Below, piece after piece: positions 4,848 through 56,537 of a stretch of 57,153 bases of DNA (position 1 is the stretch's first letter; each line of letters opens with the position of its first letter). A model generated the notes under the pieces. That model did not search any database and was not told the origin of the DNA. It saw only the letters and a program-made list of their open reading frames with translations. A program made the translations under genes and the position numbers. The stretch lies in contig JACZYA010000002.1 in the NCBI GenBank assembly GCA_022571295.1, positions 1 through 57,153 of the forward strand. Reading direction: 5' to 3'. The stretch is from Acidobacteriota bacterium (GTDB taxonomy: Bacteria; Acidobacteriota; Terriglobia; Acidiferrales; 2-02-FULL-67-57).

Positions 4848-6965
4848 ATGACAAAGCAAGTAGTAATTGACATCGGCGGACGTCCGCTGACAATTGAAAC
4901 CGGTCGTCTGGCCAAGCAGGCCAATGGCAGCGTGCAGGTGCGCTTTGGCGACACGGTAGTTTTGGTTACGGCCTGCATTCAGACCGAGCCGCGGCAAGGG
5001 CTTGACTTCTTTCCGCTCACCTGCGAGTACCGCGAGTACCAGTATGCCGCCGGCCGGATTCCGGGCGGCTTCTTCAAACGCGAAGGGCGCCCGAGCGAAA
5101 AGGAGATCGTCACCTGCCGGTTGATGGACCGACCGCTGCGGCCGCTGTTTCCGAAAGGGTTTCGCAACGAGACCCAAGTGATCGCGATGGTGCTTTCGGC
5201 CGACACCGACAATGACCCGGATGTGATCGCGCTGGTGGGCGCTTCGGCTGCGTTTTATATCTCCGACATTCCTTTCTTCACTCCCATCGCCTCGGTGCGG
5301 GTGGGATTGGTGGACGGCGCTTTGGTGTCCAACCCCACCTACGCGCAGCAGGTGGACAGCCTGCTGAACATCGTGGTGGCGGGATCGAAAGAAGCCATCG
5401 TGATGGTGGAAGCGGGCGCGGCGGAAGTGACGGAAGAGACCATCTTGGACGCTTTGCAATTCGCCCACGAACAAATCCGCAAGATCGTCGCCGGCATCGA
5501 GGATCTGCACGGCCAGATCCAGCCCAAGAAGTGGGAGGTGGCCGAGCTGGAGGTGAATCAGGAGTACTACCAGCAGATCGCCTCGCAATACGGCCAGCGG
5601 CTGGCGGACGCCTGCAACACCGAGAAGCACTCCAAAAAGGAAAGTCACCAGTTGGTGACTGCGCTCAAGAAGGAACTGGCGGAGTCCATCCCGGAAGAGG
5701 AGGAAGACCGCCGCAAGGAGGCGTCGCGTTACTTCTCCACACTGCGGGAAGAGATTTTCCGCCGCGATGTTCTGGAGAATAAGCGGCGTCCGGACGGCCG
5801 CGCCTTCGACAAGGTGCGCGCCATCAGCTGCGAAGTGGGGGTGCTGCCGCGCACGCACGGCTCGGCGCTCTTCACTCGCGGCGAGACCCAGGCGTTGGTG
5901 ACGGCCACCCTCGGTACCAAAGAGGACGTGCAGCGGCTCGACCTGCTGGCGGAAGAGGACGCCAAGAAGAAGTTCATGCTGCATTACAACTTCCCGCCGT
6001 TCTCGGTTGGCGAGGTCAAGTTCCTGCGCGGGCCCGGCCGGCGCGAGATTGGCCACGGTGCGCTGGCGGAGCGGGCCTTGCGGAAAGGCATGCCGAGCGA
6101 GGATGACTTCCCCTACACCGTCCGCGTGGTCTCCGACATTTTGGAGTCCAACGGCTCATCTTCGATGGCGACCGTGTGCGGTGGCTCGTTGGCTTTGATG
6201 GACGCCGGCGTTCCGGTGAAAGATCAGGTGGCCGGGATTGCCATGGGTTTGGTGATGGGCGAAGGCGGCAAGTACGGAATCCTCACCGACATCGCCGGAG
6301 CTGAAGACCACTACGGCGACATGGACTTCAAGGTGGCGGGCACCGCCAAGGGCATCACCGCCTTGCAGATGGACATCAAAGTCGGCGGCGTGACCTCGGC
6401 GATCCTGTCCGAGGCTCTCCAGCAGGCCAAGAAGGCCAGGCTGGAGATCCTCGACATCATGAACCAGACGCTGAGCAAGCCGCGCGAGGCCATCTCGCCC
6501 TATGCTCCCCACATCTTCACCTTGACCATCCCCCGGGACAAGATCGGCGGGCTGATCGGGCCGGGCGGGAAGGTCATCCGCGGCATCGTGGAGGCCACCG
6601 GCGCCAAGATTGACGTGATGGACGACGGCAAGGTGAACGTCTTCGCGGTGGACGAGGAAGCGGCCAAGCAGGCCATGCAAATGGTCCAGGACGTCACCGC
6701 CACCGCCGAGGTGGGGAAGACCTACCTGGGCAAGGTGGTGCGGCTGGTGGATTTCGGCGCTTTCGTCGAAATCTTTCCTGGCACCGACGGGCTGCTGCAC
6801 ATCAGCGAAATCGCCGAGCAGCGCATTCGTGATGTCCGCGACGAGCTGAAAGAAGGCGACCAGGTGATGGTCAAAGTCTTGACGGTGGAGGGTAACAAGA
6901 TTCGCCTTAGCCGCAAAGCGGTGCTGCGCGAGCAGCGCGCGAAGGAGCGTAGCGGCGCCAGTTAG
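4848..6965 (+). CDS. pnp: Polyribonucleotide nucleotidyltransferase (PNPase)
   Basis: 705 aa with two RNase PH domains and KH and S1 domains ('GKVVRLVDFGAFVEIFPGTDGLLHISE'). GGAGG lies 5 nt before the ATG, and the rpsO-pnp order is conserved. Confidence 0.97.
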   Translation: MTKQVVIDIGGRPLTIETGRLAKQANGSVQVRFGDTVVLVTACIQTEPRQGLDFFPLTCEYREYQYAAGRIPGGFFKREGRPSEKEIVTCRLMDRPLRPLFPKGFRNETQVIAMVLSADTDNDPDVIALVGASAAFYISDIPFFTPIASVRVGLVDGALVSNPTYAQQVDSLLNIVVAGSKEAIVMVEAGAAEVTEETILDALQFAHEQIRKIVAGIEDLHGQIQPKKWEVAELEVNQEYYQQIASQYGQRLADACNTEKHSKKESHQLVTALKKELAESIPEEEEDRRKEASRYFSTLREEIFRRDVLENKRRPDGRAFDKVRAISCEVGVLPRTHGSALFTRGETQALVTATLGTKEDVQRLDLLAEEDAKKKFMLHYNFPPFSVGEVKFLRGPGRREIGHGALAERALRKGMPSEDDFPYTVRVVSDILESNGSSSMATVCGGSLALMDAGVPVKDQVAGIAMGLVMGEGGKYGILTDIAGAEDHYGDMDFKVAGTAKGITALQMDIKVGGVTSAILSEALQQAKKARLEILDIMNQTLSKPREAISPYAPHIFTLTIPRDKIGGLIGPGGKVIRGIVEATGAKIDVMDDGKVNVFAVDEEAAKQAMQMVQDVTATAEVGKTYLGKVVRLVDFGAFVEIFPGTDGLLHISEIAEQRIRDVRDELKEGDQVMVKVLTVEGNKIRLSRKAVLREQRAKERSGAS

Positions 6966-10388: not shown

Positions 10389-11288
10389 TTATTTTTCTCC
10401 GAGGGTTTGGGCGACGTGGCCGTGGCTGCGGCGGAGGCGGCGCTGGGCTTCTGTGCGGGTGCAACCGAGCCGGCTCATCACAATCGCCGCTTTCAAGTTT
10501 CCGCCCGAGCGCTGGATTAATCGGCGGGCTTGGGCCGGAGAGCATCCGAGCGCAAGTTGCAAGATGCGCTGGCCGCGGCGGCGCAGCTTGGCGTTGCTCA
10601 TCTGCACGTTGACCATCAGGTTGCGATAGACGTGCCCCAGGCGCACCAGTGCCGCCGTGCTCAGCATGTTCAGGACGAGTTTTTGCGCCGTGCCTGCTTT
10701 GAGGCGGGTGGAACCGGCTATGACTTCCGGGCCGGTGGCGGGACAGATGGCTATCTGCGCGCGGCGCGCCACCGGCGAGCGCGGGTTGCTGGTGACGGCG
10801 ACCGTGAACGCGCGTTGTTTGCGCGCCTGTGCTAGCGCGCCCACGGCATAAGGGGTGGCGCCGCTGGCCGTGAGCACAACTACCACGTCTCCAGCCCGCA
10901 CGCCACCGCGACGCAGGTCGCGCGCCCCGGCTGTGCGTGAGTCCTCTGCGGCTTCCGAAGAGCGGAACATCGCCCGGCGCCCCCCGGCCAGGATGGCTTG
11001 CACTTTGCGCGGCGAAACCTGGAAGGTGGGCGGAATTTCCGCTGCATCCAGCACGCCCAAGCGCCCGCTGGTGCCGGCGCCGAGGTAGAAGAGCCGCCCC
11101 CCGCGTTGTAGAGATGCGACGATGGCATCCACCGCGCGAGCGATGTGCGGCAACTGTCGGCGGACCGCCGCGTGTACGCGGGCGTCCTCCCGGTTCATCA
11201 CTTGCAGAAGTTTTCTGGTGGAGAGCCGGTCCAAGTGCGTGGTGCGGGGGTTGGGGCGCTCGGTGACAGGGAGCGATGCGCGTTTCAT
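10389..11288 (-). CDS. murQ: N-acetylmuramic acid 6-phosphate etherase
   Basis: 299 aa with a SIS domain and 'YLGAGTSGRLGVLDA'. The start ATG overlaps the upstream symporter stop (ATGA). Confidence 0.9.
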   Translation of the reverse strand: MKRASLPVTERPNPRTTHLDRLSTRKLLQVMNREDARVHAAVRRQLPHIARAVDAIVASLQRGGRLFYLGAGTSGRLGVLDAAEIPPTFQVSPRKVQAILAGGRRAMFRSSEAAEDSRTAGARDLRRGGVRAGDVVVVLTASGATPYAVGALAQARKQRAFTVAVTSNPRSPVARRAQIAICPATGPEVIAGSTRLKAGTAQKLVLNMLSTAALVRLGHVYRNLMVNVQMSNAKLRRRGQRILQLALGCSPAQARRLIQRSGGNLKAAIVMSRLGCTRTEAQRRLRRSHGHVAQTLGEK

Positions 11289-13042
11289 CCGAAGGTTTCC
11301 CAGCCGCGGCGAGTGAAGTCAAAGTAGAGCAGCAGCGCGGCGGTTATTGCGCCCGCCAGCAGAAGCAAGCCAAGTGTCCAGAATCCCAGTAACAGTTTGC
11401 CGGTGGCGAAGAGCGCCAGATAGACCATCGCCCAACCCAGCACCCAGGCGCGCAGATTGGCCCAACCCGCAGCGGTGCTGCGCACCTCGGGAGCCTGTGC
11501 GGCCACGGGTCGCCAACCGGTGGCAGCCGGGCGCACGCGGCGATAGAAGTTCAGCAGGTGGTCGGCGGGCTCGGGCCGCGTCAGGAAAGTCACCGTCAGC
11601 CAGACGGCGGTGCAGACCGCGGTGGTGGCGAGCATGTTCTTCGCAAAAAGCAACTGCTCGCCGCCCGCGAAGGGCACCCAATGGCGCAGCGCGAGCGAGG
11701 TGAGGAAGGCGGCGATCATGGCGGAGATTTCGCTCCAGGCATTGATGCGCCACCAGTACCAGCGCAGCAGATAGACTGCGCCGGTGCCGGCGCCGATCAT
11801 GAGCAGCAGCGCCCAGGCGCCTCGGATGGTTTCCAGGTAGTAGGTGACGCCGCCCGCCAGCAGCATCAACAGGATGGTCGCTACCTGCGCCGCGCGCAGG
11901 TGATGCTGCTCCGTGGCGTGCGGGCGGAGGAAGCGGCGGTAGAAGTCGTTGATGATGTAGGACGCGCCCCAGTTCAGGTGAGTGCTGATGGTGGACATGT
12001 AGGCGGCCAGGAAAGCGGCCAGCATCAGCCCGCGCAGGCTGGCGGGCAGGTGGTCCACCATGACGAGCACGTAGCCGGCTTCCTTATCGGCCAGGTCGGG
12101 GTAGAGAACCACGGAGGCGAGCGCCACCAGAATCCACGGCCAGGGGCGCAGGGCGTAGTGGGCGATGTTGAACCAGAGCGTGGCCCAGAGCGAATGCTTC
12201 TCGTCCTTAGCGCAGAAGATGCGCTGCGCCACGTAGCCGCCGCCGCCCGGCTCGGCGCCGGGATACCAACTGGCCCACCAGTTCACCCCGATGAAGACCA
12301 AGAAGGCGGTGAGCGGCATCCAGGCGGAGTCGGTCGCCGGCAGGAAGTCGAGCAGCGAGCCGCCGCCGGCGTTGGCGGCCTCCAGTGCGAGAAGTTTGGT
12401 CTTTAACGCTCCCAGGCCGCCGACGGCGGCGACGGCGAAGTAGGCCAGGGCGATGGTCATGCTCATCATCAGGACAAATTGCAGCAGGTCGGTGATGAGC
12501 ACGCCCCACAGGCCGGCCATGGTGGTGTAGACGGCGGTCAGGGCCAGGCAGAGCAGCACGGCCGTAAGGCGCGAGAGGCCGAGCGTCAATTGGAAGACTT
12601 TGGCCATGGCCAAGTTGACCCAGCCCATGATGAGGCAGTTCATCAGCACGCCCAGGTAAAGGGCGCGGAAGCCGCGCAGGAAGGCCGCCGGGCGGCCAGC
12701 GTAGCGCAGCTCGATGAACTCTACGTCGGTCAGCACACCGGCGCGGCGCCACAAGCGAGCGAAGAAGAACACCGTCATCATCCCGCTCAGCAGCAGCGAC
12801 CACCACAACCAGTTGCCGGCGATGCCGAAGCTGGCGGTCAGGCCGGTCACGGCCAGCGGGGTGTCCACGGCGAAGGTGGTTGCGACCATCGAGGTGCCGG
12901 CAATCCACCAGGGAACGCCGCGGCCGGAGACGAAGAAGTCGGCCAAGCTGCGCTGCGCGCGGGCGCGCAGATACCAGGCGATGCCGAAGGAAATCAGGAA
13001 ATAGGTACCCAAGCAGAGCCAGTCGATAAGAGAAAGTTGCAC
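11285..13042 (-). CDS. Sodium:solute symporter (SSS) family transporter, candidate amino-sugar/MurNAc importer
   Basis: 585 aa with about 13-14 TM helices and a GTG start. It lies between the NagZ-AmiE fusion gene and murQ. The substrate is inferred from context only. Confidence 0.8.
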   Translation of the reverse strand: MQLSLIDWLCLGTYFLISFGIAWYLRARAQRSLADFFVSGRGVPWWIAGTSMVATTFAVDTPLAVTGLTASFGIAGNWLWWSLLLSGMMTVFFFARLWRRAGVLTDVEFIELRYAGRPAAFLRGFRALYLGVLMNCLIMGWVNLAMAKVFQLTLGLSRLTAVLLCLALTAVYTTMAGLWGVLITDLLQFVLMMSMTIALAYFAVAAVGGLGALKTKLLALEAANAGGGSLLDFLPATDSAWMPLTAFLVFIGVNWWASWYPGAEPGGGGYVAQRIFCAKDEKHSLWATLWFNIAHYALRPWPWILVALASVVLYPDLADKEAGYVLVMVDHLPASLRGLMLAAFLAAYMSTISTHLNWGASYIINDFYRRFLRPHATEQHHLRAAQVATILLMLLAGGVTYYLETIRGAWALLLMIGAGTGAVYLLRWYWWRINAWSEISAMIAAFLTSLALRHWVPFAGGEQLLFAKNMLATTAVCTAVWLTVTFLTRPEPADHLLNFYRRVRPAATGWRPVAAQAPEVRSTAAGWANLRAWVLGWAMVYLALFATGKLLLGFWTLGLLLLAGAITAALLLYFDFTRRGWETFG

Positions 13043-13046
13043 GCGG

Positions 13047-16010
13047 CTACTCGTTCCGTGTTCCGGGCGCTGCTGCGGCTGCGGTGTCAGCCGGTGCCAG
13101 CCCCAACGCTTCTACCACCGCGTCGTGCACCCGGGGACGGAAGTGGCGGATGCGCCGGTTCTCGCGGGTGGGGTGGACGCGGTTGGTGAGCAGGACGACG
13201 AACAGTTCTTTTTCTGGGTCAATCCAAATAGAGGTGCCGGTGAAGCCGGTGTGGCCGAAGGCGCGTGGGGAAAAGTATTGGCCGGCGGAGGCGTAGGCGG
13301 GCGGATCGGAGGGGGTGTCCCAGCCCAGGGCGCGGGTGGATTCAGGCAAGTTCTGCCGGGTGGTGAACAGTTCGATGGTGCTGCGCTGCAAGATGCGCCG
13401 GTGGGCGTAGATGCCGCCGTTGAGCAGGAGCTGGCAGAACGCAGCCAGATCGCGCGCGGTGGAGAACAGTCCGGCGTGGGGAGCGACGCCACCCATCACC
13501 CAGGCGTTTTCGTCGTGCACTTCTCCCTGCACCACGCGGTTGCGAAACTCGCGGTCGTCCTCGGTGGGAGCGATGCGGCTGCGCCAGGCGGCGGGCGGAT
13601 TGAAGAGAATGTTCTTCACGCCCAGCGGGCCGAAGAGATTCGCGCGCAAGAATTCGTCCAGCGATTGGCCGCTGAGGCGCTCGATGATTTCGCCCAGCAG
13701 AATGACGCCCAGGTCGCTATAGACGGCGCGCGAGCCGGTGGGATATTCAAGTGGCAGCGCATAAACGCGCTGGAGGAGTTCCTCGCGACTCTCCACCTCT
13801 TGAAAGAAGCGCAGGTAGCCGGGCAAGCCGCTGGAGTGGGTGAGCAGGTGGCGCACCTGAATGCGGCGCTTGGCCGCCGCGTCGGCGCCCTGCGCCAGCT
13901 CGGGCAGGAAGCGCGTGATAGGCGCATCCAGCGGTAGCACCCCGCGCTGGTAGAGCAGCATGGCGGCGGTGGTGGTGCCGACCACTTTTGTCAGCGAGGC
14001 CAGGTCGTAGAGCGTGTCGGCGCGCACGGGCGGGGCATTGGGCTCGTAGGTGAAGCGCCCGAAGGGATGCAGCGCCACCAGGCGGCCCTGATGGCCGACG
14101 GCCAGCACGCCGCCGGGCGTGACGCCCTCGGCCACGGCGTCGTCCAACAGGGAAAAGACCGGGGCAAAGTGTTCTTCGTCGCTGGGGCGGGGCGCGGCCA
14201 GCTCCAGAGGTAACGCTGACCGAACCAGTCCCGCGCCTCGATCGGCTACGCCGGGTATGGTGACGGGGAGCTTGCCGCCGATGGCGGTCTGGCCGAACAG
14301 CGCGCGGACGGCGGCGCGCTCGGCCACCGCGGCGGTGCTGAAGGTGGCGAGCACGGTGCCGGCGTCGGGGAAGCGTTCGGCCAGGTAAGGGCTACCGAGA
14401 ATCACTAGGACAGTGGGCTTGCCATCGGCGAGCACGCGCTCCACCAACTCCGCCAGTTCGTCAGGGAAGCCCAGGTCTCCCTTGCCGCTCGCCACCCGGA
14501 CAAACACCGCCACCATGCTCCAGTCGTAGAGGTCGGGCGAGGGTAGCTCAACTTCCTCGGGCGTGAAGTAGAGAGGGTCGGCGCGGACGGTGAGCAGGGA
14601 ATCCACACGTAGCTCGATTTCTTTCTCCAGCACCCTACCGGGAAAAGCATTGGCGTCGGCGGCCAACAGGAGGAGAAAGCCGCGCCGGGGTTGGGTGGAA
14701 TCCAGGGGGAGCAAGCCGGCATGGTCGCGGAGAAGGGTGATACCGCGGTCGGCAGCCTCCAGCGCTTGCTGCTCAAATTCGGGACTCGCCAGCACGGCTT
14801 CCAGCCGGTTGAGTTCCACCTGGGTTGAGCGGTGGAGGTTCAAGCGCGCTTTGGCTTCCAGGATCCGCCGCACGGATTCGTCCAGGCGTGTCTGGGTGAG
14901 CCGGCCGGATTCAACCGCGCGCTTGAGGGCGGCGAAGGCGACTTCCGGTTGGGGCGACATGAGAATGACGTCGGCGCCGGCTTCGACGGCGCGGACGGCG
15001 GCCTCGCCGGCCCAGTAATTTTCTGTGATGGCGTTCATCGTCATGGCGTCGGTGATGATGAGGCCGTCGAAGCCCAGCTCCCGGCGAAGCAGGTCGGTGA
15101 GCAGCGCGGACGAGAAGGTGGCCGGCAGTTGCGGATCGGGCTCGAGGGCGGGCACGATCAAGTGCCCCGGCATGATGGCGCTGACGCCGGCGGCAATGGC
15201 GGCGCGGAAGGGAGCGAGCTCGACTGCGTCCAGCCGGGCACGGTCAACGGTAATCACCGGCAGACTGAGGTGGCTGTCAGTGGCGGTGTCGCCGTGGCCG
15301 GGGAAATGCTTGGCGGTGCAGAGAGCGCCGTTTTCCTCGCAGCCGCGCACGAAGGCGGCCACCATCGCGGCCACCTGCTCGGGGTCTTCGCCGAAGGAGC
15401 GGATGTTGATGACGGGGTTCTCGGGATTGTTGTTGACGTCGGCCACCGGCGCCAGCACCCAGTGCACGCCCAGTGCGCGGGCTTCGATGGCGGCGGCGCG
15501 GCCCAGGGCTTCGGCATACTTGGGATCGCCAGTAGCGCCGACGGCCATGTTGTGCGGGAAGACGGTGGTGGGGTGGACGCGGAAGCTGGCGCCGCGCTCG
15601 AAGTCGCCCGCCACCAGCAAGGGCGTGCGCGCCAATTGTTGCAGGCGATTGGTCAAGCGGGCCAGAGCATAGACTTCCGTCAGCTCGATCCCGCTGGGTT
15701 TGCGGGGCCGGGTGGCGACCACGAAACCGCCCACGTGCAGTTCCCGGACCTGCTGAGATAGACGAGCAAATTCCTCACTCTTGTTGTTGGAAAAGGCGCC
15801 GAAGTAGGGCACCATCAGGAGCTGCCCGACCTTTTCCTCTAGGGTCAGGCGCTTGAGGGTGCGCTCGACCCAGCGCCGGGCGGCGCGGGGAAGCTGCTTG
15901 CCGGAGTCGGCTTGGGCGAAGGCAGGGGTCGCGCTTAGTGGCAGCAGGAGAAAGAACAACAGCAGGCAGGCGGTGCGTCGCAGGCGAGACTCCACTGGGG
16001 CGTGAACCAC
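13047..16010 (-). CDS. Secreted bifunctional fusion: GH3 beta-N-acetylglucosaminidase (NagZ-like, N- and C-domains) + serine-hydrolase/beta-lactamase-fold domain (AmiE/YbbE-like MurNAc-L-Ala amidase)
   Basis: 987 aa with signal peptide '...LLFFLLLPLSATPAFAQ'. GH3 motifs are 'KHFPGHGDT' and 'LIITDAMTMNAI'. The C-terminal domain has S-x-x-K 'ASLTKVVG', 'YSDLG' and 'GHTGFTGTS'. The exact GTG start is uncertain (16010 or 15995). Confidence 0.85.
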   Translation of the reverse strand: MVHAPVESRLRRTACLLLFFLLLPLSATPAFAQADSGKQLPRAARRWVERTLKRLTLEEKVGQLLMVPYFGAFSNNKSEEFARLSQQVRELHVGGFVVATRPRKPSGIELTEVYALARLTNRLQQLARTPLLVAGDFERGASFRVHPTTVFPHNMAVGATGDPKYAEALGRAAAIEARALGVHWVLAPVADVNNNPENPVINIRSFGEDPEQVAAMVAAFVRGCEENGALCTAKHFPGHGDTATDSHLSLPVITVDRARLDAVELAPFRAAIAAGVSAIMPGHLIVPALEPDPQLPATFSSALLTDLLRRELGFDGLIITDAMTMNAITENYWAGEAAVRAVEAGADVILMSPQPEVAFAALKRAVESGRLTQTRLDESVRRILEAKARLNLHRSTQVELNRLEAVLASPEFEQQALEAADRGITLLRDHAGLLPLDSTQPRRGFLLLLAADANAFPGRVLEKEIELRVDSLLTVRADPLYFTPEEVELPSPDLYDWSMVAVFVRVASGKGDLGFPDELAELVERVLADGKPTVLVILGSPYLAERFPDAGTVLATFSTAAVAERAAVRALFGQTAIGGKLPVTIPGVADRGAGLVRSALPLELAAPRPSDEEHFAPVFSLLDDAVAEGVTPGGVLAVGHQGRLVALHPFGRFTYEPNAPPVRADTLYDLASLTKVVGTTTAAMLLYQRGVLPLDAPITRFLPELAQGADAAAKRRIQVRHLLTHSSGLPGYLRFFQEVESREELLQRVYALPLEYPTGSRAVYSDLGVILLGEIIERLSGQSLDEFLRANLFGPLGVKNILFNPPAAWRSRIAPTEDDREFRNRVVQGEVHDENAWVMGGVAPHAGLFSTARDLAAFCQLLLNGGIYAHRRILQRSTIELFTTRQNLPESTRALGWDTPSDPPAYASAGQYFSPRAFGHTGFTGTSIWIDPEKELFVVLLTNRVHPTRENRRIRHFRPRVHDAVVEALGLAPADTAAAAAPGTRNE

Positions 16011-16078
16011 TCCTCCGCAAAATTACTTGACCCTGCCAGGGGCAGTTCGTATATAGCACAGCCGGAAGCGGGTTGCGA

Positions 16079-17314
16079 ATGCTTTTGCGCCGACTAAAAG
16101 CGGTGGCAGTGCTGGTAGCGCTGGTGCTGCTGGTGTTTCTGCTGCGCGGGAACCGGTGGTGGCCGCCGCCCCCCACCAGGGTGGCTCCGGTGCGAACCGG
16201 GATTGATGTGCTGGCAGCCGACGGCTTCGCGTTGCTGGCGGGCAAGCGCGTCGGGTTGATTACCAACCAGACCGGGCGAACGCGGGACGGCCGGCGGACG
16301 GTTGACCTGCTGGCGGCGGCGCCGGAGGTGAAGTTGGTGGCGCTATTTTCTCCCGAGCATGGGATGGAAGGTGTGCGAACGGGGCGCGTGGAAGATGGCG
16401 CCGACTCGGCCACCGGTCTGCGAGTGTACAGTCTCTATGGCCAGACGCGGCGGCCCACGGCGGAGATGCTGGGCGGGTTGGATGCACTCGTCTTTGATAT
16501 TCAGGACGCCGGGGTGCGCTACTACACCTACGTCACCACCATGGGCTATGCGATGGAAGAGGCGACGCGGCGCGGCATCGAGTTCGTGGTGCTCGACCGT
16601 CCCAACCCATTGAACGGGCGCGCGGTCGAAGGGCCGATCTTGGACGCCGACCGGTTGAGCTTTGAGGGCTACTTTCCCTTGCCGCTGCGCCACGGGATGA
16701 CGCTGGGCGAGCTGGCGCGGCTGTTCAACCGGAAAAAGAAGATCGGCGCGCGCTTGACGGTGGTGCCACTGGCGGGATGGCGGCGCGAGCAGTGGTTCGA
16801 CCAAACGGGGTTGGAGTGGGTCAATCCCTCGCCCAACCTGCGTAGCCTGGCGGGAAACACTTTTTATCCGGCGGTGGAGTTGCTGCGTGCGGGCGGAGTG
16901 TCGGTGGGGCGGGGAACCGACACGCCCTTCGAGTTGTTCGGCGCGCCGTGGATGGAGGCAGAAAAACTAGCGGGCTATCTGAACCAGCGTGGCGTTCCCG
17001 GCGTGCGCTTTGAACCGCTGCGCTTTCGGCCCACCGCTGACGTGCACGCCGACCAGGATTGTCAGGGCGTACGCCTGTTGCTGGCCGACCGGGAAGTGCT
17101 TGACCTCGGGCGGTTGGGGGTGGAGTTGGTAGCGGCGCTGCATCGTTTCTACCCACAGGATTTCGAATTGGCGAAGACCATCCGCTTGCTCGGCTCGGCG
17201 CGGACGCTGGCGCGGCTGAAGGCCGGCGACGATCCCGCTGACATCGCTGCCGGTTGGGAAGAAGAATTGGCGGCGTTCCGGAAGTTGCGCGCGCCCTACC
17301 TGCTTTACGACTGA
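16079..17314 (+). CDS. DUF1343 protein, NamZ/YbbC-like exo-beta-N-acetylmuramidase
   Basis: 'GKRVGLITNQTG', 'LFSPEHG', 'VYSLYGQTRRPT', 'FDIQDAGVRYYTY' and 'VLDRPNP' resemble B. subtilis YbbC (from memory). An N-terminal TM anchor is present. ATG 16079 is preferred over TTG 16073. Confidence 0.85.
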   Translation: MLLRRLKAVAVLVALVLLVFLLRGNRWWPPPPTRVAPVRTGIDVLAADGFALLAGKRVGLITNQTGRTRDGRRTVDLLAAAPEVKLVALFSPEHGMEGVRTGRVEDGADSATGLRVYSLYGQTRRPTAEMLGGLDALVFDIQDAGVRYYTYVTTMGYAMEEATRRGIEFVVLDRPNPLNGRAVEGPILDADRLSFEGYFPLPLRHGMTLGELARLFNRKKKIGARLTVVPLAGWRREQWFDQTGLEWVNPSPNLRSLAGNTFYPAVELLRAGGVSVGRGTDTPFELFGAPWMEAEKLAGYLNQRGVPGVRFEPLRFRPTADVHADQDCQGVRLLLADREVLDLGRLGVELVAALHRFYPQDFELAKTIRLLGSARTLARLKAGDDPADIAAGWEEELAAFRKLRAPYLLYD

Positions 17315-17380
17315 GGTCTCTCCTCGCACGCAAGAAGTTTTCTCCCTTGTTATTTCGAGGAGCCTGCTCGCGGCGGGTGA

Positions 17381-17441
17381 CGAAGAATCTCGTGCGTTGC
17401 TGACGGTCATGTAGGGGATTCTTCGCTTTGCTCAGAATGAC
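17381..17441. repeat. Inverted repeat (cgaagaatc / gattcttcg) carrying one copy of a dispersed 25-nt motif
   Basis: 9-bp arms at 17381-17389 and 17417-17425. 17417-17441 is the reverse complement of gtcattctgagcaaagcgaagaatc and matches 42350-42374 at 22/25 positions. It lies between convergent genes and so may act as a terminator. Confidence 0.55.
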
Positions 17442-17465
17442 AACAAACTGAGTTTTCGTGGAATA

Positions 17466-18854
17466 TCAGGGTTGCGTGGGAGCGCGGCGCTGCCAGAACC
17501 AGTAGAGCGGCAGGCCGGCGGCCATGAACAGCAAACCCAGCCCGGTTTCCATCGGGCTGTTGTATGCAATGTTGAGAATGAACACCGCAGCCACCACCAC
17601 GAAGGCGGCCGGCACCCAGGGATAGCCCAGCGTGCGGTAGGGGCGCGGCAGGTCGGGCTGCGTGCGGCGGAGGACGAGGACTGAAGCGGTGGTCATGCCG
17701 TAGAAAAGCCAGAGCCCGAAGATGGTGTAGGTGAAGAGCTTGTCGAAGGCGTCGCGGCTGTTTCCGAAGATCAGGATCAGCACGCAGGAAAAAATAGCCT
17801 GCAACAGCAGTGCCTTGGCGGGCGTGCGGTGGAGGGGGTGGACCTGTGCCATGAAGCGGAAGAAGAGGCGGTCGCGGGCCATGGCGTAGGGAATGCGGGC
17901 GCCGCTGAGGATGGCGGCGTTGAGGGTGGCAAAGGTAGAGATGAGCGCGCCCAGGGTGATGATGATTCCGCCCCACTCGCCCAGGAAACTGCGGGCCATC
18001 TCCTGCGCCACGCGCTCGGTGCCCTGCACGGTTGCGAGCGGCAGGATGTAGAAGTAGGCGGCGTTGACGAAGAGATACACCAGCATCACACCCAGGGTGC
18101 CGAAAATGAGTGCGCGCGGGATGTTGCGCTCCGGGTCGCGCACTTCCTCGCCCACCATGGTCAGGTTGTTCCAGCCGTCGTAAGCCCACAACGCCGCCAC
18201 CAGCGCCACCCCGAAGGCGCTGAAGGTGCCCACACCTTTGGGCGCGGCGAAGAAGGGCTCGAAGGCCGACGGGGCTGCGTGTCCGAGGACGAAGGCCAGC
18301 GCCGCCAGCGTCAGGATGATGGCTACTTTCATCACGGTGAACACGGTCTGCACCGCGCCGCCCAGGATGACGCCCAGGTAGTTGATGACGGTCAGGCCGA
18401 TGATGGCGGAGAGCGAGATCACTTGCGCGCCGGTGAGCGACCAGGTGGCGAAACCCAGCGGCAGCCGCAGCATCTCCTCGTGCAGGGCGCTGAAGAAGTA
18501 GCCCAGGAAAAGCGCGAAGGCGGTGGCGATGGTGGCGATGGAGCCGGTCTTGCCGATGACGAACGCTTCCCACCCGTAGAGGTAGCCCCAGAGCGGCCCG
18601 TAGGCGCGCCGGAGGAAAACGTACTCGCCCCCCGCTTGCGGCATGGCCGCGCCCAACTCGGCGTAGCTCAGCGCGCCGGCCAGCGAGAGCAGACCGCCCA
18701 CAATCCAGACCAGGAAGACCAGTCCGACCGAGTCCACTTGCCGCGCGATGGAGGAGGGGACGAGGAAAATTCCCGTGCCGATGATGGTGCCGGTCACGAT
18801 GGAGCCGGCGCCCCAAATACCCAGTCCGCGGATCAGTTGCGGTTGTGTGCTCAT
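17466..18854 (-). CDS. APC-superfamily amino acid permease
   Basis: 462 aa, 12 TM helices, 'GAGSIVTGTIIGTGIF'. The start overlaps the stop of the upstream symporter (ATGA). Confidence 0.85.
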   Translation of the reverse strand: MSTQPQLIRGLGIWGAGSIVTGTIIGTGIFLVPSSIARQVDSVGLVFLVWIVGGLLSLAGALSYAELGAAMPQAGGEYVFLRRAYGPLWGYLYGWEAFVIGKTGSIATIATAFALFLGYFFSALHEEMLRLPLGFATWSLTGAQVISLSAIIGLTVINYLGVILGGAVQTVFTVMKVAIILTLAALAFVLGHAAPSAFEPFFAAPKGVGTFSAFGVALVAALWAYDGWNNLTMVGEEVRDPERNIPRALIFGTLGVMLVYLFVNAAYFYILPLATVQGTERVAQEMARSFLGEWGGIIITLGALISTFATLNAAILSGARIPYAMARDRLFFRFMAQVHPLHRTPAKALLLQAIFSCVLILIFGNSRDAFDKLFTYTIFGLWLFYGMTTASVLVLRRTQPDLPRPYRTLGYPWVPAAFVVVAAVFILNIAYNSPMETGLGLLFMAAGLPLYWFWQRRAPTQP

Positions 18855-20323
18855 GCGTCCTCCGGTGCGGGCCTGATGATACTAAGAAGCCAACCGACCA
18901 GAAAAGTTGCCAGCGTACCCACCAGCACGTACCAGGTCCAGGCCAGGTTGGTAAAGAACTTGACGTAGAGCAGCAAGACGAGCCCGGCCAACATCCCGGC
19001 GGCCGCTCCGGTGGGCGTGGCGCGCGGCACCAGGCGGCCGAGCAGGAAGAGTCCCAGCAGGGAGCCGTAGGTGATGGAGGCGATGGCTAGCCCGGCTTCC
19101 AGCACCGAGCCCCAACCGCGCGCTAGCATGGCCAGGGCAACCAGCACGCCGCCCCACGCCAGCGTCACCCAGCGCGAGCGTCGCAGCAGTTGCGCGGGAC
19201 TAACGGTGCCGCTGCCGAAAAGACGGTGGAAGTCAACTACGGTGGAAGCCGCCAGTGAATTGAGGGTGGAGCTGGAAGTGGACATGGCGGCGGCCAGCAC
19301 GCCCGCCACCATCAGCCCGCTGAGGCCGGTGGGCAGGTGCGTCACCATGAAGGTGGGGAAGATGCGGTCGGGGTTGTCGAACGCCACGCCCGGCTGCGTG
19401 CTGTTGAGTTGGTAGAAGACATAGAGCCAAACGCCGATCAACAGGAACAGGACGAACTGCCCGAAGACAATGAAACCACTGGCGATCAGCGCTCGGCGGC
19501 TTTCGCGCAGGTTGCGGGCGGCCAGCAGGCGCTGCACCATGAGCTGGTCGGTGCCGTGGCTGGCCATGCTGAGGAAGGTGCCGCCCAGCAGGCCCGCCCA
19601 GAAGGTGTAGGTTTTGTCCCAGGCGAAGGAGAAGTCCAGGAAGGTCAGCTTGTCCGCCGCCAGGCTTTGAACCAAGGCATAGGGGACCTGCTCGAGCAGC
19701 AGCCAGAGTGAAACCAGGCCGCCGCCAATGTAGATGAAGAACAGAACCACGTCGGTCCAGATAACGGCCTTCATCCCGCCCAGGAAGGTGAAGAGCAGCG
19801 TCAGGCTCATCACCACCAGTACGGCGGTGAGTTCGGCCACCCGCACCTGCCGGTCGGTGAAGAGGCCGATCACGCGCGGCAGCACCAGTTGCACCACGAT
19901 GGCGATGGCCCACAGGCGCACCGCGTCGGCCAGCGCGCGCGTCACCAGGAAGAGCGCCGCCGCCAGCTGCCGCGTGACCTCCCCGAAGCGCCGCTCGATG
20001 TATTGGTAGGCGGTCAGAAGCTCCCCACGGAAATACTGCGGCAGCAGCAGGAAGCTGATCAGGAAGCGGGCAACGATGTAGCCCAGGGCAAGTTGCAGGA
20101 AGGCCATGTTCGAGCCGTAGGCCAGGGCGGGGATGCCGATGATGGTCAGGGTCGAAGTCTCGGTGGCGACGATCGAAAGCGAGATGGCCCACCAGGGCGT
20201 GGTGCGGCGGCCGAGGAAGTAGTCGTTGATGTCGTGCTGGTGTCGGCGGAAGTAAGCGCCCAGCAGGGTGACGCCGGCCAGGAAGGCAACAACGATAATC
20301 AGGTCGAGCCGGCCAAAACCCAA
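18851..20323 (-). CDS. Sodium:solute symporter (SSS) family transporter
   Basis: 490 aa, polytopic. The TTG start is preceded by GGGAGGGA at 4-nt spacing. Confidence 0.8.
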   Translation of the reverse strand: MGFGRLDLIIVVAFLAGVTLLGAYFRRHQHDINDYFLGRRTTPWWAISLSIVATETSTLTIIGIPALAYGSNMAFLQLALGYIVARFLISFLLLPQYFRGELLTAYQYIERRFGEVTRQLAAALFLVTRALADAVRLWAIAIVVQLVLPRVIGLFTDRQVRVAELTAVLVVMSLTLLFTFLGGMKAVIWTDVVLFFIYIGGGLVSLWLLLEQVPYALVQSLAADKLTFLDFSFAWDKTYTFWAGLLGGTFLSMASHGTDQLMVQRLLAARNLRESRRALIASGFIVFGQFVLFLLIGVWLYVFYQLNSTQPGVAFDNPDRIFPTFMVTHLPTGLSGLMVAGVLAAAMSTSSSTLNSLAASTVVDFHRLFGSGTVSPAQLLRRSRWVTLAWGGVLVALAMLARGWGSVLEAGLAIASITYGSLLGLFLLGRLVPRATPTGAAAGMLAGLVLLLYVKFFTNLAWTWYVLVGTLATFLVGWLLSIIRPAPEDA

Positions 20324-20439
20324 GCAGTCCCTCCCGTCGCCCGGCGCTTGAGATGCACGCGGAGTCTACTGGAAGCGCGGCACACAGGCAAGGTTGCATG
20401 AAGCGGCCAAGTGCTGTGCTATGCTAACCGGAAATTGCG

Positions 20440-21378
20440 ATGGGTTTTTTTCTCGGCATTGACGGCGGCGGCAGCAAGACCGAGTGCGTGTTGGGGGACG
20501 CCTCGGGCGCGGTGCTGGCGCGCGCCGTCGGAGCCGGTGCCAACCTGCGCCGCACCGACGCTACTTCGCTGCGGCAGCTTCTCAGCGATTGTTTCCGGGA
20601 ATTGCGCCGTTCCGCCAGCCTGCACGCGTTGGACTGCGATGTGGTCTGCGCGGGTTTCGCCGGTGCAGGACAACCGGAACCTCAACAGATGGCACGCGCG
20701 GTGTTGGCAGAACTGCTGCGCCCCCGCTGGCTCTACGTGCTGGGCGACATGGAAGTAGCGTTGGAGGCGGCTGTGGGCGGCGGCTGCGGCGTAGTGTTGC
20801 TGGCCGGCACCGGTTCGATTGCCTACGGCCGCAACGGCAAGGGAGAGGTGGCGCGGGCAGGAGGCGAAGGCCCGGCGGTGGGCGACGAAGGCAGCGGCTA
20901 CGCTATCGGGCGCGCTGCCGTCGAGGCCGTTCTGCAGGCCGGAAAAGACCGCGCGCCAGAGACACGCTTGACCAAGCCCCTCTGCGACGCCCTGCGCGTT
21001 TCCCGTCCGGAAGAATTATCCCAGCGCATCTCGCCCGCCAATGCCGCCGAGTTGGCGGCGCTGCTTCCCGTGGTGGTTGAGGCGGCCAGAGCGGGTGACA
21101 CCACCGCCCGAGAGATTTTGCGGCAGGCAGGGGAGGTACTGGCCGGGGTGGCGGTGAAGGTTTTGCAGCAGCTCGATCTTTTGATCGGGGATGTGCGGCT
21201 GGCAACTAGCGGCGGCGTCTTTGCGGCCAGCGAGGAAGTGTTCAACGGGGTGCGCACTGTTATCGCGCGGGTGGCGCCGCGCGTGGGTGTGGAGAGGCTG
21301 GTAGTGTCTCCGGCCGAAGGGGCCTTGCGGCTGGGCCAGCGGCTGTGGCTGGAGGAAAGCGCCGGGGGTCGTAAGTAG
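20440..21378 (+). CDS. BadF/BadG/BcrA/BcrD-type ATPase, N-acetylglucosamine/MurNAc kinase-like
   Basis: 'FLGIDGGGSKTECVL' and 'LLAGTGSIAYG' are ASKHA-fold phosphate loops; 312 aa. Confidence 0.8.
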   Translation: MGFFLGIDGGGSKTECVLGDASGAVLARAVGAGANLRRTDATSLRQLLSDCFRELRRSASLHALDCDVVCAGFAGAGQPEPQQMARAVLAELLRPRWLYVLGDMEVALEAAVGGGCGVVLLAGTGSIAYGRNGKGEVARAGGEGPAVGDEGSGYAIGRAAVEAVLQAGKDRAPETRLTKPLCDALRVSRPEELSQRISPANAAELAALLPVVVEAARAGDTTAREILRQAGEVLAGVAVKVLQQLDLLIGDVRLATSGGVFAASEEVFNGVRTVIARVAPRVGVERLVVSPAEGALRLGQRLWLEESAGGRK

Positions 21379-34616: not shown

Positions 34617-35870
34617 TCATTGCTCTGATTTCTCTTGCTTGTATCTTCGCCGTAGCTCCTCAGCCTTGGTTCTGATCTCAGTTAAATCCCGCCGCATTTC
34701 ACTCCACCCATACCAAAGCGCATAGTCAGGGTTGGCGTGGAAGGTGCCTTGGAAAGCTCGCATGCGGTGTTCGAGGTGCATCACAAACAGCCTTTGCTCA
34801 ATTGAAGTAGGGGCATCGTGAAAGGTGAGCAAGTCGGGAAACGCGTACGGATAATTCTCGGGCTTTTCCAGGACGCCGTCTTTGTACAGCCCCGCCACGA
34901 TGCGGATGGCCTCGGCCAGCAGACGGTCCGTTTCCTGGATCATTTGGTCGCCTTTCTCCAACTCCGCCCGGGCAAAATTGGACGAATGGCACTGGTTGCA
35001 AGTTCTGAGCATCTTGTCGCGTTCCCTCTGCCAGTCTTCCTGGGTGAGGCGTATCACATCGGCCTGCTTGATCACCTCCAGCCGCGCGGTGGGGTTCCCT
35101 TCGGGATCCAACACGCCCAGTGCTTGCAGAATCGTGGTGCGGTCGGCCGCCCACTGCGTGTCCTCCGGCAGGGGCAGGCGCACCGCCAGGAAGCCCCACG
35201 CGGTGCGGACCTCATGGTTGCCCTCCTGCATGTGGCAGGTTTGGCAGGTGGGAGCGGCCACGGTTTCGGGGAGTATCCCGCTTTGCTTCAGCAGGTACCG
35301 CACTCCGTGTTTGGACCCTGAATACATCTCCCACTGCGGATGGTCGAATCCCATGTGGCAGGTCCGGCACGCTTGCGGCTGGCGGGCTTCTTGGACGGAA
35401 AAGAGATGCCGGGTGTGGCAGGCATCGCAAGAAGCGACGCCAAACCCCGCCCCCTGTGCCTTCAGCTCCCGAATCTCTTCCTCTGTCTTCAACCCGATCT
35501 TGTGGCAGCCGCCGCAGCCTTTCATCCCCTCGATCAAGACCATCGGCTGCCAGTGGGTGGTCGGCATGGCTTTCATTGCCGCCCAGGCCAAGGCGTGCTT
35601 TCCGGCCTTGAATTGCTCGACCTGGATGTCGTGGCAAGGGGCGCAGGTCTCTGGTGTGGGGATCTGCACCTGGGCCACATCCTCCGCCGACGTGTGCTGA
35701 TCCCCGTGGCAGACCGAGCAATCAATCCCGCTCTGGCTGTGCTTGCTCAGTCGCCAGTCGGAAACAATACTGGGCGTGACTTTTTCGTGGCAACTCGCGC
35801 AATCCTGAGCTGCTGCCGGCAGAACAACGAACAAGGTCACCAGGAAACTGAGAAATGCTCTCGCGGCCAT
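34617..35870 (-). CDS. Secreted octaheme c-type cytochrome, hydroxylamine-oxidoreductase (HAO)-like family
   Basis: Eight CxxCH motifs (CASCH, CSVCH, CAPCH, CGGCH, CDACH, CRTCH, CQTCH, CNQCH), a signal peptide and a heme-free helical C-terminal region. ATG 35870 follows AGGAGG at 7-nt spacing. Confidence 0.7.
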   Translation of the reverse strand: MAARAFLSFLVTLFVVLPAAAQDCASCHEKVTPSIVSDWRLSKHSQSGIDCSVCHGDQHTSAEDVAQVQIPTPETCAPCHDIQVEQFKAGKHALAWAAMKAMPTTHWQPMVLIEGMKGCGGCHKIGLKTEEEIRELKAQGAGFGVASCDACHTRHLFSVQEARQPQACRTCHMGFDHPQWEMYSGSKHGVRYLLKQSGILPETVAAPTCQTCHMQEGNHEVRTAWGFLAVRLPLPEDTQWAADRTTILQALGVLDPEGNPTARLEVIKQADVIRLTQEDWQRERDKMLRTCNQCHSSNFARAELEKGDQMIQETDRLLAEAIRIVAGLYKDGVLEKPENYPYAFPDLLTFHDAPTSIEQRLFVMHLEHRMRAFQGTFHANPDYALWYGWSEMRRDLTEIRTKAEELRRRYKQEKSEQ

Positions 35871-36076
35871 GGGCACACCTCCTACTCCAGGCTAAACCAA
35901 CAGAGGCTTTGCCGGAGAGTAACGAAATCCCGCTCTCCCGGCAGAGCGGGGCTCCATAAACTCTTCAGTTGCTTCCCATTGTAAGCCCACCAGCGGCTTC
36001 CATCATAGCTTTCTTCATTCGGCCCGCTGGCCTACAATGTGCAGCTGGCCTTAGCCGCGCGAACGAGAAACGACCG

Positions 36077-40108: not shown

Positions 40109-40375
40109 TTAGGATTCAATTTGCGGAGTGTCGTCCTCCGCATCCAACGCTTCGCTCATTTCTTCTTCCATCTGCTCCAGCAGCGTCCGCGCTTGCTGCT
40201 CGTCTTTCTTGCTCACCCACAAACCGATTTCTCCCAGCACGCCCGCCGGCAGCACTCCCAGGTCGCGATTGGAGAAGCATTCGATCCCGCGATCCAGCAG
40301 AACCTGTTCCATCATCTTGGCCTGCAACAGGTTCAGCCCTGCCCAGACCCGCACCGTCTTTTCCTCGCGCTCCAT
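40109..40375 (-). CDS. Small DUF2007-like protein (putative signal-transducing fold)
   Basis: 88 aa, a beta-alpha-beta-like core plus an acidic tail. It starts 10 nt after the extended VKOR frame ends and lies 14 nt upstream of recA. Confidence 0.5.
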
Positions 40376-40415
40376 CGTTCTCTTCTACCGCGCCTGCCAC
40401 AGCAGAAGCAAGAGG

Positions 40416-40434
40416 GCCACGTTCACGACGTGGC
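40416..40434 (-). other. SECIS-like hairpin immediately downstream of the in-frame UGA of the VKOR gene
   Basis: On the minus-strand RNA, GCCACGU-CGUGA-ACGUGGC forms a perfect 7-bp stem with a 5-nt loop that has G at loop position 2. The stem starts 7 nt after the UGA. This is geometry only; no covariance model was run. Confidence 0.35.
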
Positions 40435-40441
40435 TGAGCAG

Positions 40442-40807
40442 TCACAACCCGCACCAACTCTTCAGCCGCGCCACCAACGCCCAGATCAAATACGGCGCCA
40501 GCAGCACGCTCGCCGCCGCCAATCCCAGCGTCAGCAACCACAACCACTCCGGCAGCCGCCCCGCCAGCGCCAGCAGCGCCGCCGTTCCGGCCAGAAGATA
40601 AAACCCCACTCCCAGCAGCGCATTGGGCACGCCCAACAGGCGCGCGTAGGGCGTGCGCAGGATCGTTACGCAGGCCTGCTCCTCCCGGCGACAGAATACT
40701 GTTGGAACCCCCCGCGCTGCCACGCGCTCAAAATAAATCAGAGTGAAGTAAAGGGAGATGGCGCACCCTGCCACCGCCAACCCCAACAACCACCACCACA
40801 GTGTCAA
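40442..40807 (-). CDS. Vitamin K epoxide reductase (VKOR) family protein, as the conventional ORF ending at TGA; probably continues to 40386 (see finding)
   Basis: TM1, loop Cys pair 'FCRREEQAC...LRTPYARLLGVPNALLGVGFY', TM2 and TM3. The ORF then ends '...LKSWCGL-TGA' in the middle of the CxxC active site. TTG start after AGGTAGG. Confidence 0.75.
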   Translation of the reverse strand: MTLWWWLLGLAVAGCAISLYFTLIYFERVAARGVPTVFCRREEQACVTILRTPYARLLGVPNALLGVGFYLLAGTAALLALAGRLPEWLWLLTLGLAAASVLLAPYLIWALVARLKSWCGL

Positions 40808-55919: not shown

Positions 55920-56537
55920 ATGCAGGCGCCGGGGGCGCAGACACAAACTCTTCCCTCCCGGTGTGCTTTTCCATACAGTAGGGTCCGCCAGCTTGACGTA
56001 CTGTGTAGCGGGGTCGCCAAGTGCGCGCCAAGGGAGAGGGGGCAAAGCCGCGTAGTCATCCTAGGGGTCGTTGTGTTTGTCCCGGTGCTGGCCGGCCTGC
56101 TGGCTGGCTGCGCGGGTGACTTCCAGCCCGTCCAACCCCTGGCGTTCAGCCATACCGTTCATGCGGGTGAATTCAAGATTCCCTGCCTGTACTGCCACAG
56201 CTACGCTCGCCGCTCACCGGTAGCAGGCGTGCCTTCCATGCAACGGTGCATGGGCTGCCATAACTGGATTCAATCCGACCACCCGGAAATTGCGAAACTT
56301 AAAGAGTACTGGGATCGGGAGGAGCCCATTCCCTGGATTCGCGTGTACTCCACCCCCGATTTCGTTCATTTCAATCACAAGCGGCACGTGCGCGCCGGAG
56401 TTGAGTGCCAAGCCTGCCATGGGCCGGTCGAGACCATGGAGCAGGTCAGCCGCGTGAGTTCGCTCGAAATGGGCTGGTGTCTCCAGTGCCACCGACAACG
56501 AAACGTATCGGTGGATTGCGCAACTTGTCACTACTGA
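55920..56537 (+). CDS. actA: Alternative complex III subunit ActA-like pentaheme cytochrome c
   Basis: Five CxxCH motifs (CLYCH, CMGCH, CQACH, CLQCH, CATCH) follow an N-terminal anchor/lipobox-like 'LLAGC'. The true start inside the ORF is uncertain. Confidence 0.75.
   Translation: MQAPGAQTQTLPSRCAFPYSRVRQLDVLCSGVAKCAPRERGQSRVVILGVVVFVPVLAGLLAGCAGDFQPVQPLAFSHTVHAGEFKIPCLYCHSYARRSPVAGVPSMQRCMGCHNWIQSDHPEIAKLKEYWDREEPIPWIRVYSTPDFVHFNHKRHVRAGVECQACHGPVETMEQVSRVSSLEMGWCLQCHRQRNVSVDCATCHY

Follow-up and report, generated by a model that had tools for sequence, protein, structure and literature searches.

A conserved in-frame UGA at the quinone-side cysteine codon of a VKOR-family gene of Terriglobia: a candidate CxxU selenoprotein

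In the VKOR of Synechococcus, a pair of cysteines in a loop hands electrons to the active-site pair Cys130-Cys133, and Cys133 lies beside the quinone ring (PMC3800646); human Cys135 and DsbB Cys44 are the equivalent conserved quinone contacts (PMC4555120). E. coli DsbB belongs to a different family but follows the same logic, being a four-helix membrane protein in which a loop cysteine pair takes up electrons from a partner in the periplasm and relays them to a CXXC motif, the C-terminal Cys of which (Cys44) contacts the quinone (PMC4555120). The VKOR family has been defined by the loop cysteine pair together with a conserved Ser/Thr (Goodstadt and Ponting, in PMC4555120), and the CXXC motif was described as invariant among 327 VKOR homologues in a 2015 survey (PMC4555120). 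Here we describe a VKOR-family gene on the minus strand of a 57,153-nucleotide stretch of DNA from an Acidobacteriota bacterium (contig JACZYA010000002.1, positions 1 to 57,153; referred to as the window), in which the codon for the second active-site cysteine is UGA. Based on sequence comparisons, we consider it probable, at approximately 0.88, that this UGA is decoded as selenocysteine (Sec). This reading draws on the conservation of the in-frame UGA, its pairing of Sec with Cys in 93 Cys homologues, conserved flanks on both sides and a stable stem-loop with a loop G-U that appears to be under RNA-level selection.

Selenoproteins with a CxxU or UxxC motif (SelW-like, AhpD-like, DsbA-like, DsbG-like, Prx-like, Trx and Grx) are the other relevant comparison. 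As would be the case for the window gene, Sec replaces one Cys of a redox CxxC motif in these proteins, Cys homologues are abundant, a hairpin resembling a selenocysteine insertion sequence (SECIS) lies in the coding region past the UGA, and the annotation is truncated (PMC13188914). They are, however, mostly soluble and have a thioredoxin-like or AhpD fold, whereas the window protein has an integral-membrane, quinone-coupled VKOR fold.

The conventional open reading frame (ORF) of the window gene (40442-40807, minus strand) begins with TTG and encodes 121 amino acids ending in ARLKSWCGL, directly before the TGA at 40444-40442. When this codon is read through, the frame continues for a tail of 18 codons, LLSHVVNVALLLLLWQAR (40389-40441), up to a TAG at 40388-40386, so that the full-length gene (40386-40807, minus strand) would specify 140 residues, namely, 121 amino acids, Sec122 and 18 further amino acids. 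The read-through product matches the VKOR profile PF07884 with an E value of 2.8e-25 and 89.4 bits against a cut-off of 27.5, and positions 1-133 of the 134 in the profile are covered only with the UGA read through. Hydropathy analysis of this product gave four hydrophobic segments (approximately residues 3-26, 57-85, 88-115 and 118-138), the last of which is present only with read-through; the tail represents the fourth transmembrane helix (TM4) of the VKOR fold. Its counterpart in Cys-type VKORs is the homologous segment CYAAHAINxxLFVLL, and the G+C content at the third positions of the tail codons is 0.94. Reading through the TGA also reduces the gap to the downstream gene, which starts with an ATG at 40375, from 66 to 10 nucleotides (nt). 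An earlier note on this DNA had assigned the gene to the VKOR family and had pointed to an ORF ending within the catalytic motif, a TGA in place of the second redox Cys, a frame open for 18 more codons, a shorter intergenic gap and a perfect hairpin 7 nt past the UGA, and all of these points were confirmed.

Which residue the UGA replaces could be deduced from structurally characterized relatives. When the window protein was compared with PDB sequences by phmmer, VKOR chains were the only significant structural relatives found by sequence search, and it aligned with the Synechococcus VKOR (3KP9, 4NV2/5/6) at low identity with an E value of 1e-5. In this alignment, C39 and C46, the electron-shuttling loop pair in the motif FCRREEQAC (40670-40693, minus strand), correspond to Cys50 and Cys56, and T52 corresponds to the conserved Ser/Thr, Ser62. 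C119 (40451-40453, minus strand), the first residue of the CxxU motif, corresponds to Cys130, and the TGA codon 122 corresponds to Cys133. As Cys133 is the quinone-side Cys, the proposed Sec would be the quinone-reactive residue. Among the close relatives described below (group 1), C119 and C46 are invariant and C39 is nearly so. The window protein thus has the loop pair and the Ser/Thr (C39, C46 and T52) that define the family and, by hydropathy, four transmembrane helices with read-through; in the active site, C119 is present and codon 122 is UGA, so that a literal CXXC is absent and the CxxU motif is complete only if UGA stands for Sec. Like the window protein, the Synechococcus VKOR has a four-helix core, a loop Cys pair, a Ser/Thr six residues past the second loop Cys and an active-site pair where TM4 begins. 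The window protein differs from it in the UGA-encoded quinone-side position, the lack of a fused thioredoxin domain and of a fifth helix, and its length of 140 residues.

The UGA is not peculiar to this contig, although the 121-amino-acid product itself has no database record. A protein search yielded 43 relatives with 58-98% identity, all of which are annotated as ORFs of about 110-145 amino acids that stop at W-C-x-L in the same column, a truncation that is typical of the automated annotation of selenoproteins; remoter matches (133 amino acids) run on via C-R-I-C into the fourth helix. We therefore compared the DNA of VKOR relatives from 51 genome loci and 80 metagenome loci. The TGA-type VKORs related to the window gene, designated group 1 and belonging to one Terriglobia clade, carry TGA, and never TAA or TAG, as their second active-site codon; this holds for the window and 33 further loci (34/34 sequences, 32 of them distinct). 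At the corresponding codon, 93 other loci, from Terriglobia and Blastocatellia, have TGC or TGT. Identity among the TGA forms is 53-99% and does not exceed 50% between TGA and Cys forms, and the 31 distinct TGA-type tips in a neighbor-joining tree form one clade. Going by their database labels, their carriers are Terriglobia, including Candidatus Acidiferrales, represented by metagenome-assembled genomes (MAGs) from groundwater, fractures and sediment. Two contigs that come from other projects (L052 and L053) show 98% identity to the window and likewise carry the TGA.

These data bear directly on the possibility that the window copy carries a recent nonsense mutation, is a pseudogene or contains a base-call error. 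A single base change from TGC or TGT would suffice, the product would be left with half of the redox center and no TM4, and no Sec machinery is encoded in the window, all of which would suit such an explanation. Against this, the same TGA recurs in independent MAGs and metagenomes, in 32 distinct sequences whose identity falls as low as 53%, the tail always has exactly 18 codons with neither a frameshift nor an extra stop, the housekeeping synteny is kept and the stop is never TAA or TAG. A shared systematic error is implausible across Illumina projects of different laboratories. With the TGA fixed in the whole clade and the downstream frame conserved, the sporadic and relaxed pattern expected of a pseudogene is not seen, and we regard a broken gene or base-call error as excluded for all practical purposes. 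Of the two alternatives offered in the earlier note, a just-broken gene is therefore discarded, and a selenoprotein gene is favored by the conserved UGA, the Cys homologues, the conserved tail and the invariant hairpin; the orthologue comparison that it had suggested gave a clear TGA column in group 1 and Cys codons in the remaining homologues. We conclude that the window gene is a genuine, conserved VKOR gene, in all probability of the CxxU type.

If the UGA were a genuine stop, the product would be a three-helix, single-Cys remnant of a VKOR, and the hairpin would be an intrinsic terminator or another mRNA element before the DUF2007 gene that follows. Annotators do call the ORF of about 120 amino acids every time, and a consensus scan for terminators picks up the hairpin, the 8 nt past the stem containing 5 T. 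A U-tract is lacking, however: in 25/30 sequences T runs reach a length of 2 at most, and the T content stems from Leu, Ile and Val codons. Moreover, the 18 codons past the supposed stop keep the frame, the length, the TM4 hydrophobicity and the H-x-x-N motif of the Cys homologues. Tail length is exactly 18 in-frame codons in all 33 Sec-type loci scanned, and the tail consensus of the TGA forms, L[LAM][SG]HVVNVA[ILVM]L..LW, has the H-x-x-N motif and hydrophobic TM4 character in common with that of the Cys forms, Y[AT][AG]HAIN..LFVLL. Ala, Leu and Trp columns of the tail are retained while their codons vary, which represents synonymous variation outside the hairpin. The ratio of nonsynonymous to synonymous divergence (pN/pS) over 9 tail codons was 0.45 in frame 0 and 0.44 in frame +1 and hence did not separate the frames. 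The stop is always TGA, and a second, distant group of VKORs (group 2, see below) has the same arrangement with a different hairpin. To our knowledge, no activity has been described for a VKOR without TM4 and the quinone-side Cys. Termination at this codon is consequently very unlikely to be the correct reading. Likewise, a genome-wide reassignment of TGA is unlikely, since TGA is the ordinary stop of 20/47 called genes in the window, none of which, apart from the VKOR gene, has a coding-like extension.

The hairpin that would direct the insertion of Sec, GCCACGU-CGUGA-ACGUGGC (GCCACGTCGTGAACGTGGC; 40416-40434, minus strand), begins 7 nt past the TGA and has a stem of 7 base pairs (bp) and a loop of 5 nt with G19-U20, counted from the U of the UGA. 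It is unique in the window (0.03 matches expected at up to 3 mismatches), and the local fold of 81 nt in the window is not significant when taken alone (z=-1.77). The significance of the UGA and the hairpin lies instead in the comparison with other sequences, which shows conservation of the TGA, of the tail with its 18 codons and of the 19-nt hairpin alike. The hairpin is identical in all 36 group-1 loci, and its flanks vary. Its codons CAC-GTC-GTG-AAC-GTG (H, V, V, N and V) are each represented by one codon in 32/32 distinct sequences, and Ser, where the hairpin encodes it (25 sequences), is always AGC, whereas outside the hairpin the same 32 sequences have 23 degenerate columns that are fully conserved, each of which is written with two to five synonymous codons. 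Single-codon columns thus amount to 5/5 in the hairpin and 0/23 elsewhere (Fisher test, p=1e-5, a value that is indicative only, as the sequences are related). Pairwise synonymous divergence (pS) is 0 in the hairpin, compared with 0.42 upstream and 0.55 downstream, and the invariance is bounded exactly by the base of the stem, with variation at position 10 and in the wobble base of position 30. The wobble bases C18 and G21 are also fixed although they are unpaired in the loop, which points to sequence-specific recognition of the loop, as in the interaction of SelB with SECIS elements. Judged by this codon usage, the hairpin is under selection at the RNA level. The mean minimum free energy of the 42 nt past the codon is -12.8 kcal/mol in the TGA forms (n=24 distinct) and -6.4 kcal/mol in the Cys forms (n=69).

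Bacterial SECIS elements have a consensus loop of 3-9 nt with G within the first two positions, usually followed by G or U, a stem of 4-16 bp, a minimum free energy of -7.5 kcal/mol or lower and a distance of 16-37 nt between the UGA and the loop (PMC13188914). The window hairpin agrees with this model in its loop CGUGA (G at position 2, followed by U), its 7-bp stem and its energy of -10.1 kcal/mol. As in the fdhF-type SECIS of E. coli and the bSECISearch model, the group-1 hairpin has a small apical loop with G and then U directly downstream of the UGA; it differs from them in being nearer to the UGA and in having no bulged U. The view, put forward in the earlier note, that the hairpin is close to bacterial SECIS geometry therefore holds for loop, stem and energy and less clearly for spacing, the loop lying at or slightly under the lower limit of the consensus distance.

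A second line of evidence for the selenoprotein reading comes from VKORs that are only distantly related to the window protein. An exhaustive profile search (463 matches) revealed three further proteins that stop at C-P-L (P0066, P0125 and P0185), and a follow-up protein search added about 45 proteins of 122-131 amino acids ending in PCPL. These group-2 proteins share 29-36% identity with the window protein, and one of them gives a weak match to the NCBIfam DsbB model. Cys relatives of this group also exist, namely P0211 (145 amino acids, ...CPLCITGHIVNAAVFALL) and P0230. All 8 distinct group-2 DNA sequences have TGA at the same VKOR codon, followed by a TM4 tail of 18-22 codons. Their hairpin differs from that of group 1: it reads CGCGGC-GGUC-GCCGCG at +24 to +39, and its loop, 26 nt past the UGA, is inside the 16-37 nt range. 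The GGUC loop is of the fdhF type. In the stem, 93.8% of cells are paired and two compensatory pair changes are seen (G-C to A-U and C-G to U-A), the covariation score being reached by 14/500 shuffles, which is a weak statistic from 8 sequences only. In a Cys relative (L148) of the Sec form L146, the two being 79% identical, the hairpin has decayed to CGCCGC-GGTC-TTCGCG. A tree places the Sec forms in at least three places among the Cys forms, as is usual for Sec/Cys exchange in selenoprotein families. In L153 (3385-3432), a Sec-type gene of group 2 from the P0250 lineage with the tail MLSHACHGMAAALL, the common GGUC hairpin is missing from its usual register, and the SECIS element, if there is one, differs in structure.

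Independent signs of Sec decoding were found on two of the contigs compared. The group-2 contig L143 (GCA_975902685.1) carries, 7-9 kb from its Sec-type VKOR gene, a gene of the UGSC family (NF041046; 17627-19270, minus strand), a known selenoprotein family. This gene is split by an in-frame TGA (GVGH-TGA-STCAP) into called genes of 97 and 438 amino acids, and the TGA is followed by the hairpin CCGGC-GGUC-GCCGG, which indicates that this organism decodes Sec with the same type of loop as that of the group-2 VKOR. In L023, a Terriglobia MAG (DATJAQ01) with a Cys-type VKOR, a selD gene is located at 5025-6050 on the minus strand, about 4 kb from the VKOR gene. Its catalytic position is occupied by an in-frame TGA (5985-5987; KAAG-TGA-AAKL), past which lies the hairpin GAGUCCAA-GGAUU-UUGGACUC with the loop G at +23, and by these sequence features its product is a Sec-containing SelD. 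Sec decoding hence exists in Terriglobia. It is of note that many SelD database entries from Terriglobia are 319-322 amino acids long instead of 346, which suggests that they are systematically miscalled at the N terminus. Our SelD database search retrieved many Terriglobia SelD proteins and yielded no link between them and the MAGs carrying Sec-VKOR.

Several observations weigh against the decoding of the window UGA as Sec. Three of them concern the hairpin. Its loop starts 14 nt past the A of the UGA, or 17 nt from the U, and thus falls in or out of the 16-37 nt range of the model depending on the counting convention, and its loop G at +19 is 4 nt nearer to the UGA than the loop G of the L023 SelD. 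The group-1 hairpin never varies and hence offers no proof of pairing by covariation, although none would be expected, since the pairing partner of each wobble base in the stem is the first position of a codon and is held constant by the encoded amino acid. No Rfam match for the hairpin was obtained at the gathering threshold, and permissive thresholds gave only chance-level matches; bacterial SECIS elements are poorly modelled in Rfam. The remaining observations concern the decoding machinery. ARAGORN detected no tRNA-Sec in the 57-kb window or in any of the fetched loci, and tblastn searches with E. coli SelA, SelB and SelD found no selA, selB or selD in the window or in the approximately 1.16 Mb of fetched loci of both groups, except for the selD gene in L023. 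Neither the window nor the 196 kb of group-1 loci contained a second selenoprotein gene, the only convincing TGA-extension matches being the VKOR genes themselves.

Some of these points would also suit a selenium-independent read-through of the UGA by a near-cognate tRNA-Cys, tRNA-Trp or another signal, with the hairpin acting as a stimulator and not as a SECIS element. Hairpins 3' of stop codons can stimulate read-through in other systems, no selA, selB, selD or tRNA-Sec was found in the window or in the fetched loci of the Sec-type lineage, and the hairpin is nearer to the UGA than in the SECIS consensus. However, the position in question calls for a redox-active residue, being Cys in 93 homologues, and UGA is used exclusively. 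The G-U apical loop with its fixed unpaired wobble bases suggests SelB-like recognition, Terriglobia relatives decode Sec, and contig L143 harbors, besides its group-2 VKOR gene, a known selenoprotein gene whose hairpin has the GGUC loop type of that VKOR. We therefore give selenium-independent read-through only a slim chance and retain Sec as the residue most probably inserted.

With Sec as the inserted residue, the following mechanism can be proposed. The UGA at 40444-40442 would be recoded by the bacterial SelB/tRNA-Sec pathway, and the invariant hairpin that starts 7 nt downstream, within the TM4 coding sequence, would serve as the recoding signal. The product would be a 140-residue, four-helix membrane thiol oxidoreductase of the VKOR family with the active site Cys119-Gly-Leu-Sec122. 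By homology with the Synechococcus VKOR and DsbB, the loop pair Cys39/Cys46 may receive electrons from a periplasmic partner, DsbA-like or with a thioredoxin fold, and deliver them through a C119/U122 selenenylsulfide to a membrane quinone, with Sec122 presumably occupying the place of the Cys that lies against the quinone ring. Compared with a thiolate, a selenolate is more nucleophilic and a better leaving group, and the Se-S couple has a lower potential. It is conceivable that selenium speeds or enables the transfer of electrons to the quinone, possibly a low-potential menaquinone in subsurface Acidobacteria. If this is true, the enzyme would be a rare case of a selenolate acting within the membrane against a quinone and would provide a natural experiment on the debated chemical step of VKOR and DsbB, that is, thiolate attack on, or charge transfer with, the quinone.

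Taking both groups into account, it is likely that VKOR is an unrecognised selenoprotein family with selenium at the quinone-reacting residue, in which the switch from Cys to Sec has been gained or lost repeatedly in distant clades that each have a SECIS type of their own, the Terriglobia element being unusually close to the UGA and invariant in sequence. An inventory of 119 prokaryotic selenoprotein families published in May 2026 has no entry for VKOR, PF07884, vitamin K or DsbB, nor does it list a Sec-containing DsbB (PMC13188914), and the deep-Sep paper mentions no VKOR selenoprotein. Literature linking VKOR with selenocysteine, SECIS or UGA consisted only of unrelated work, mainly on ferroptosis and nutrition. 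NCBIfam release 20 contains ordinary VKOR models only, for which these proteins score below the cut-off, and no VKOR selenoprotein model. The remark in the earlier note that VKOR is not among the described bacterial selenoprotein families agrees with both the inventory and NCBIfam. Within the literature searched, the proposed Sec-VKOR is thus an undescribed selenoprotein family, in which a known fold and a known recoding mechanism are newly combined.

If this assignment is true, one family would be added to the 119 of the prokaryotic selenoproteome, and it would be integral to the membrane and coupled to quinone, in contrast to the mostly soluble redox proteins catalogued so far. At a practical level, all database entries found for these genes are truncated proteins of about 120-127 amino acids, and recognition of the Sec codon restores TM4 and the catalytic center to them and allows a selenoprotein-aware family model to be built. 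As the proposed Sec replaces exactly the Cys that lies beside the quinone in VKOR and DsbB, the natural Sec/Cys pair of L146 and P0211 (79% identical) provides matched enzymes for studying the role of this residue, which could show why selenium helps, for example, with a low-potential menaquinone. The presence within one family of two SECIS solutions for one codon, of which one is invariant and lies only 14 nt past the UGA, also offers test cases for SECIS prediction and for the spacing rules of SelB.

The genomic setting of the gene is conserved as well. In the window, a thiolase gene lies upstream of the VKOR gene, and a DUF2007 gene (PF09413; 40109-40375, minus strand) followed by recA lies downstream. 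The DUF2007 gene, a conserved neighbor, begins 10 nt past the TAG of the VKOR gene, and the two are probably cotranscribed. The order thiolase-VKOR-DUF2007-recA is also found in loci L134-L136, and group-1 TGA-type VKOR genes are in general embedded in a conserved housekeeping setting, lspA-lgt-rluD-VWA-...-UvrD/PD-(D/E)XK helicase-thiolase-VKOR-DUF2007-recA-PBP. One contig with a group-1 Sec-VKOR (L011, DATLZZ010000024.1) is labelled Candidatus Xenobia (Vulcanimicrobiota). Its VKOR closely resembles that of the Acidobacteriota contig L008, with the end of a thiolase gene lying upstream in both, and it could reflect mis-binning or lateral transfer.

With regard to a redox partner, no DsbA- or thioredoxin-like gene was found close to the VKOR gene in the window, in which 39/47 called genes were scanned, or in the group-2 loci. 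The sole thioredoxin-fold candidate among the genes scanned is encoded at 1120-1644 on the minus strand, 39 kb from the VKOR gene; it is TlpA/AhpC-TSA-like and has a WCPPC motif as well as a hydrophobic stretch at its N terminus. This protein is probably a thiol:disulfide oxidoreductase, and a functional link to the VKOR is speculative. Just downstream of the Cys-type VKOR gene in five loci (L023, L027, L031, L039 and L041) is an ORF (...LEMIKFEHSVFALPFALTG...) that we take to resemble UbiA-type prenyltransferases; if this is true, the Cys-type VKORs of these loci would be linked to quinone biosynthesis.

Two multihaem c-type cytochrome genes of the window (34617-35876, minus strand, and 55920-56537, plus strand; Multi-haem_cyto and Cytochrome_C7) hint at an anaerobic or metal-respiring organism. 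The region from 10389 to 21378 encodes a SIS-domain (MurQ-like) protein, two sodium:solute symporters, a NamZ exo-muramidase, an amino-acid permease, a BadF/BcrA-type ATPase and a 987-amino-acid fusion of a glycoside hydrolase family 3 domain with a beta-lactamase-fold domain, and it appears to be a cluster for the recycling of cell wall sugars.

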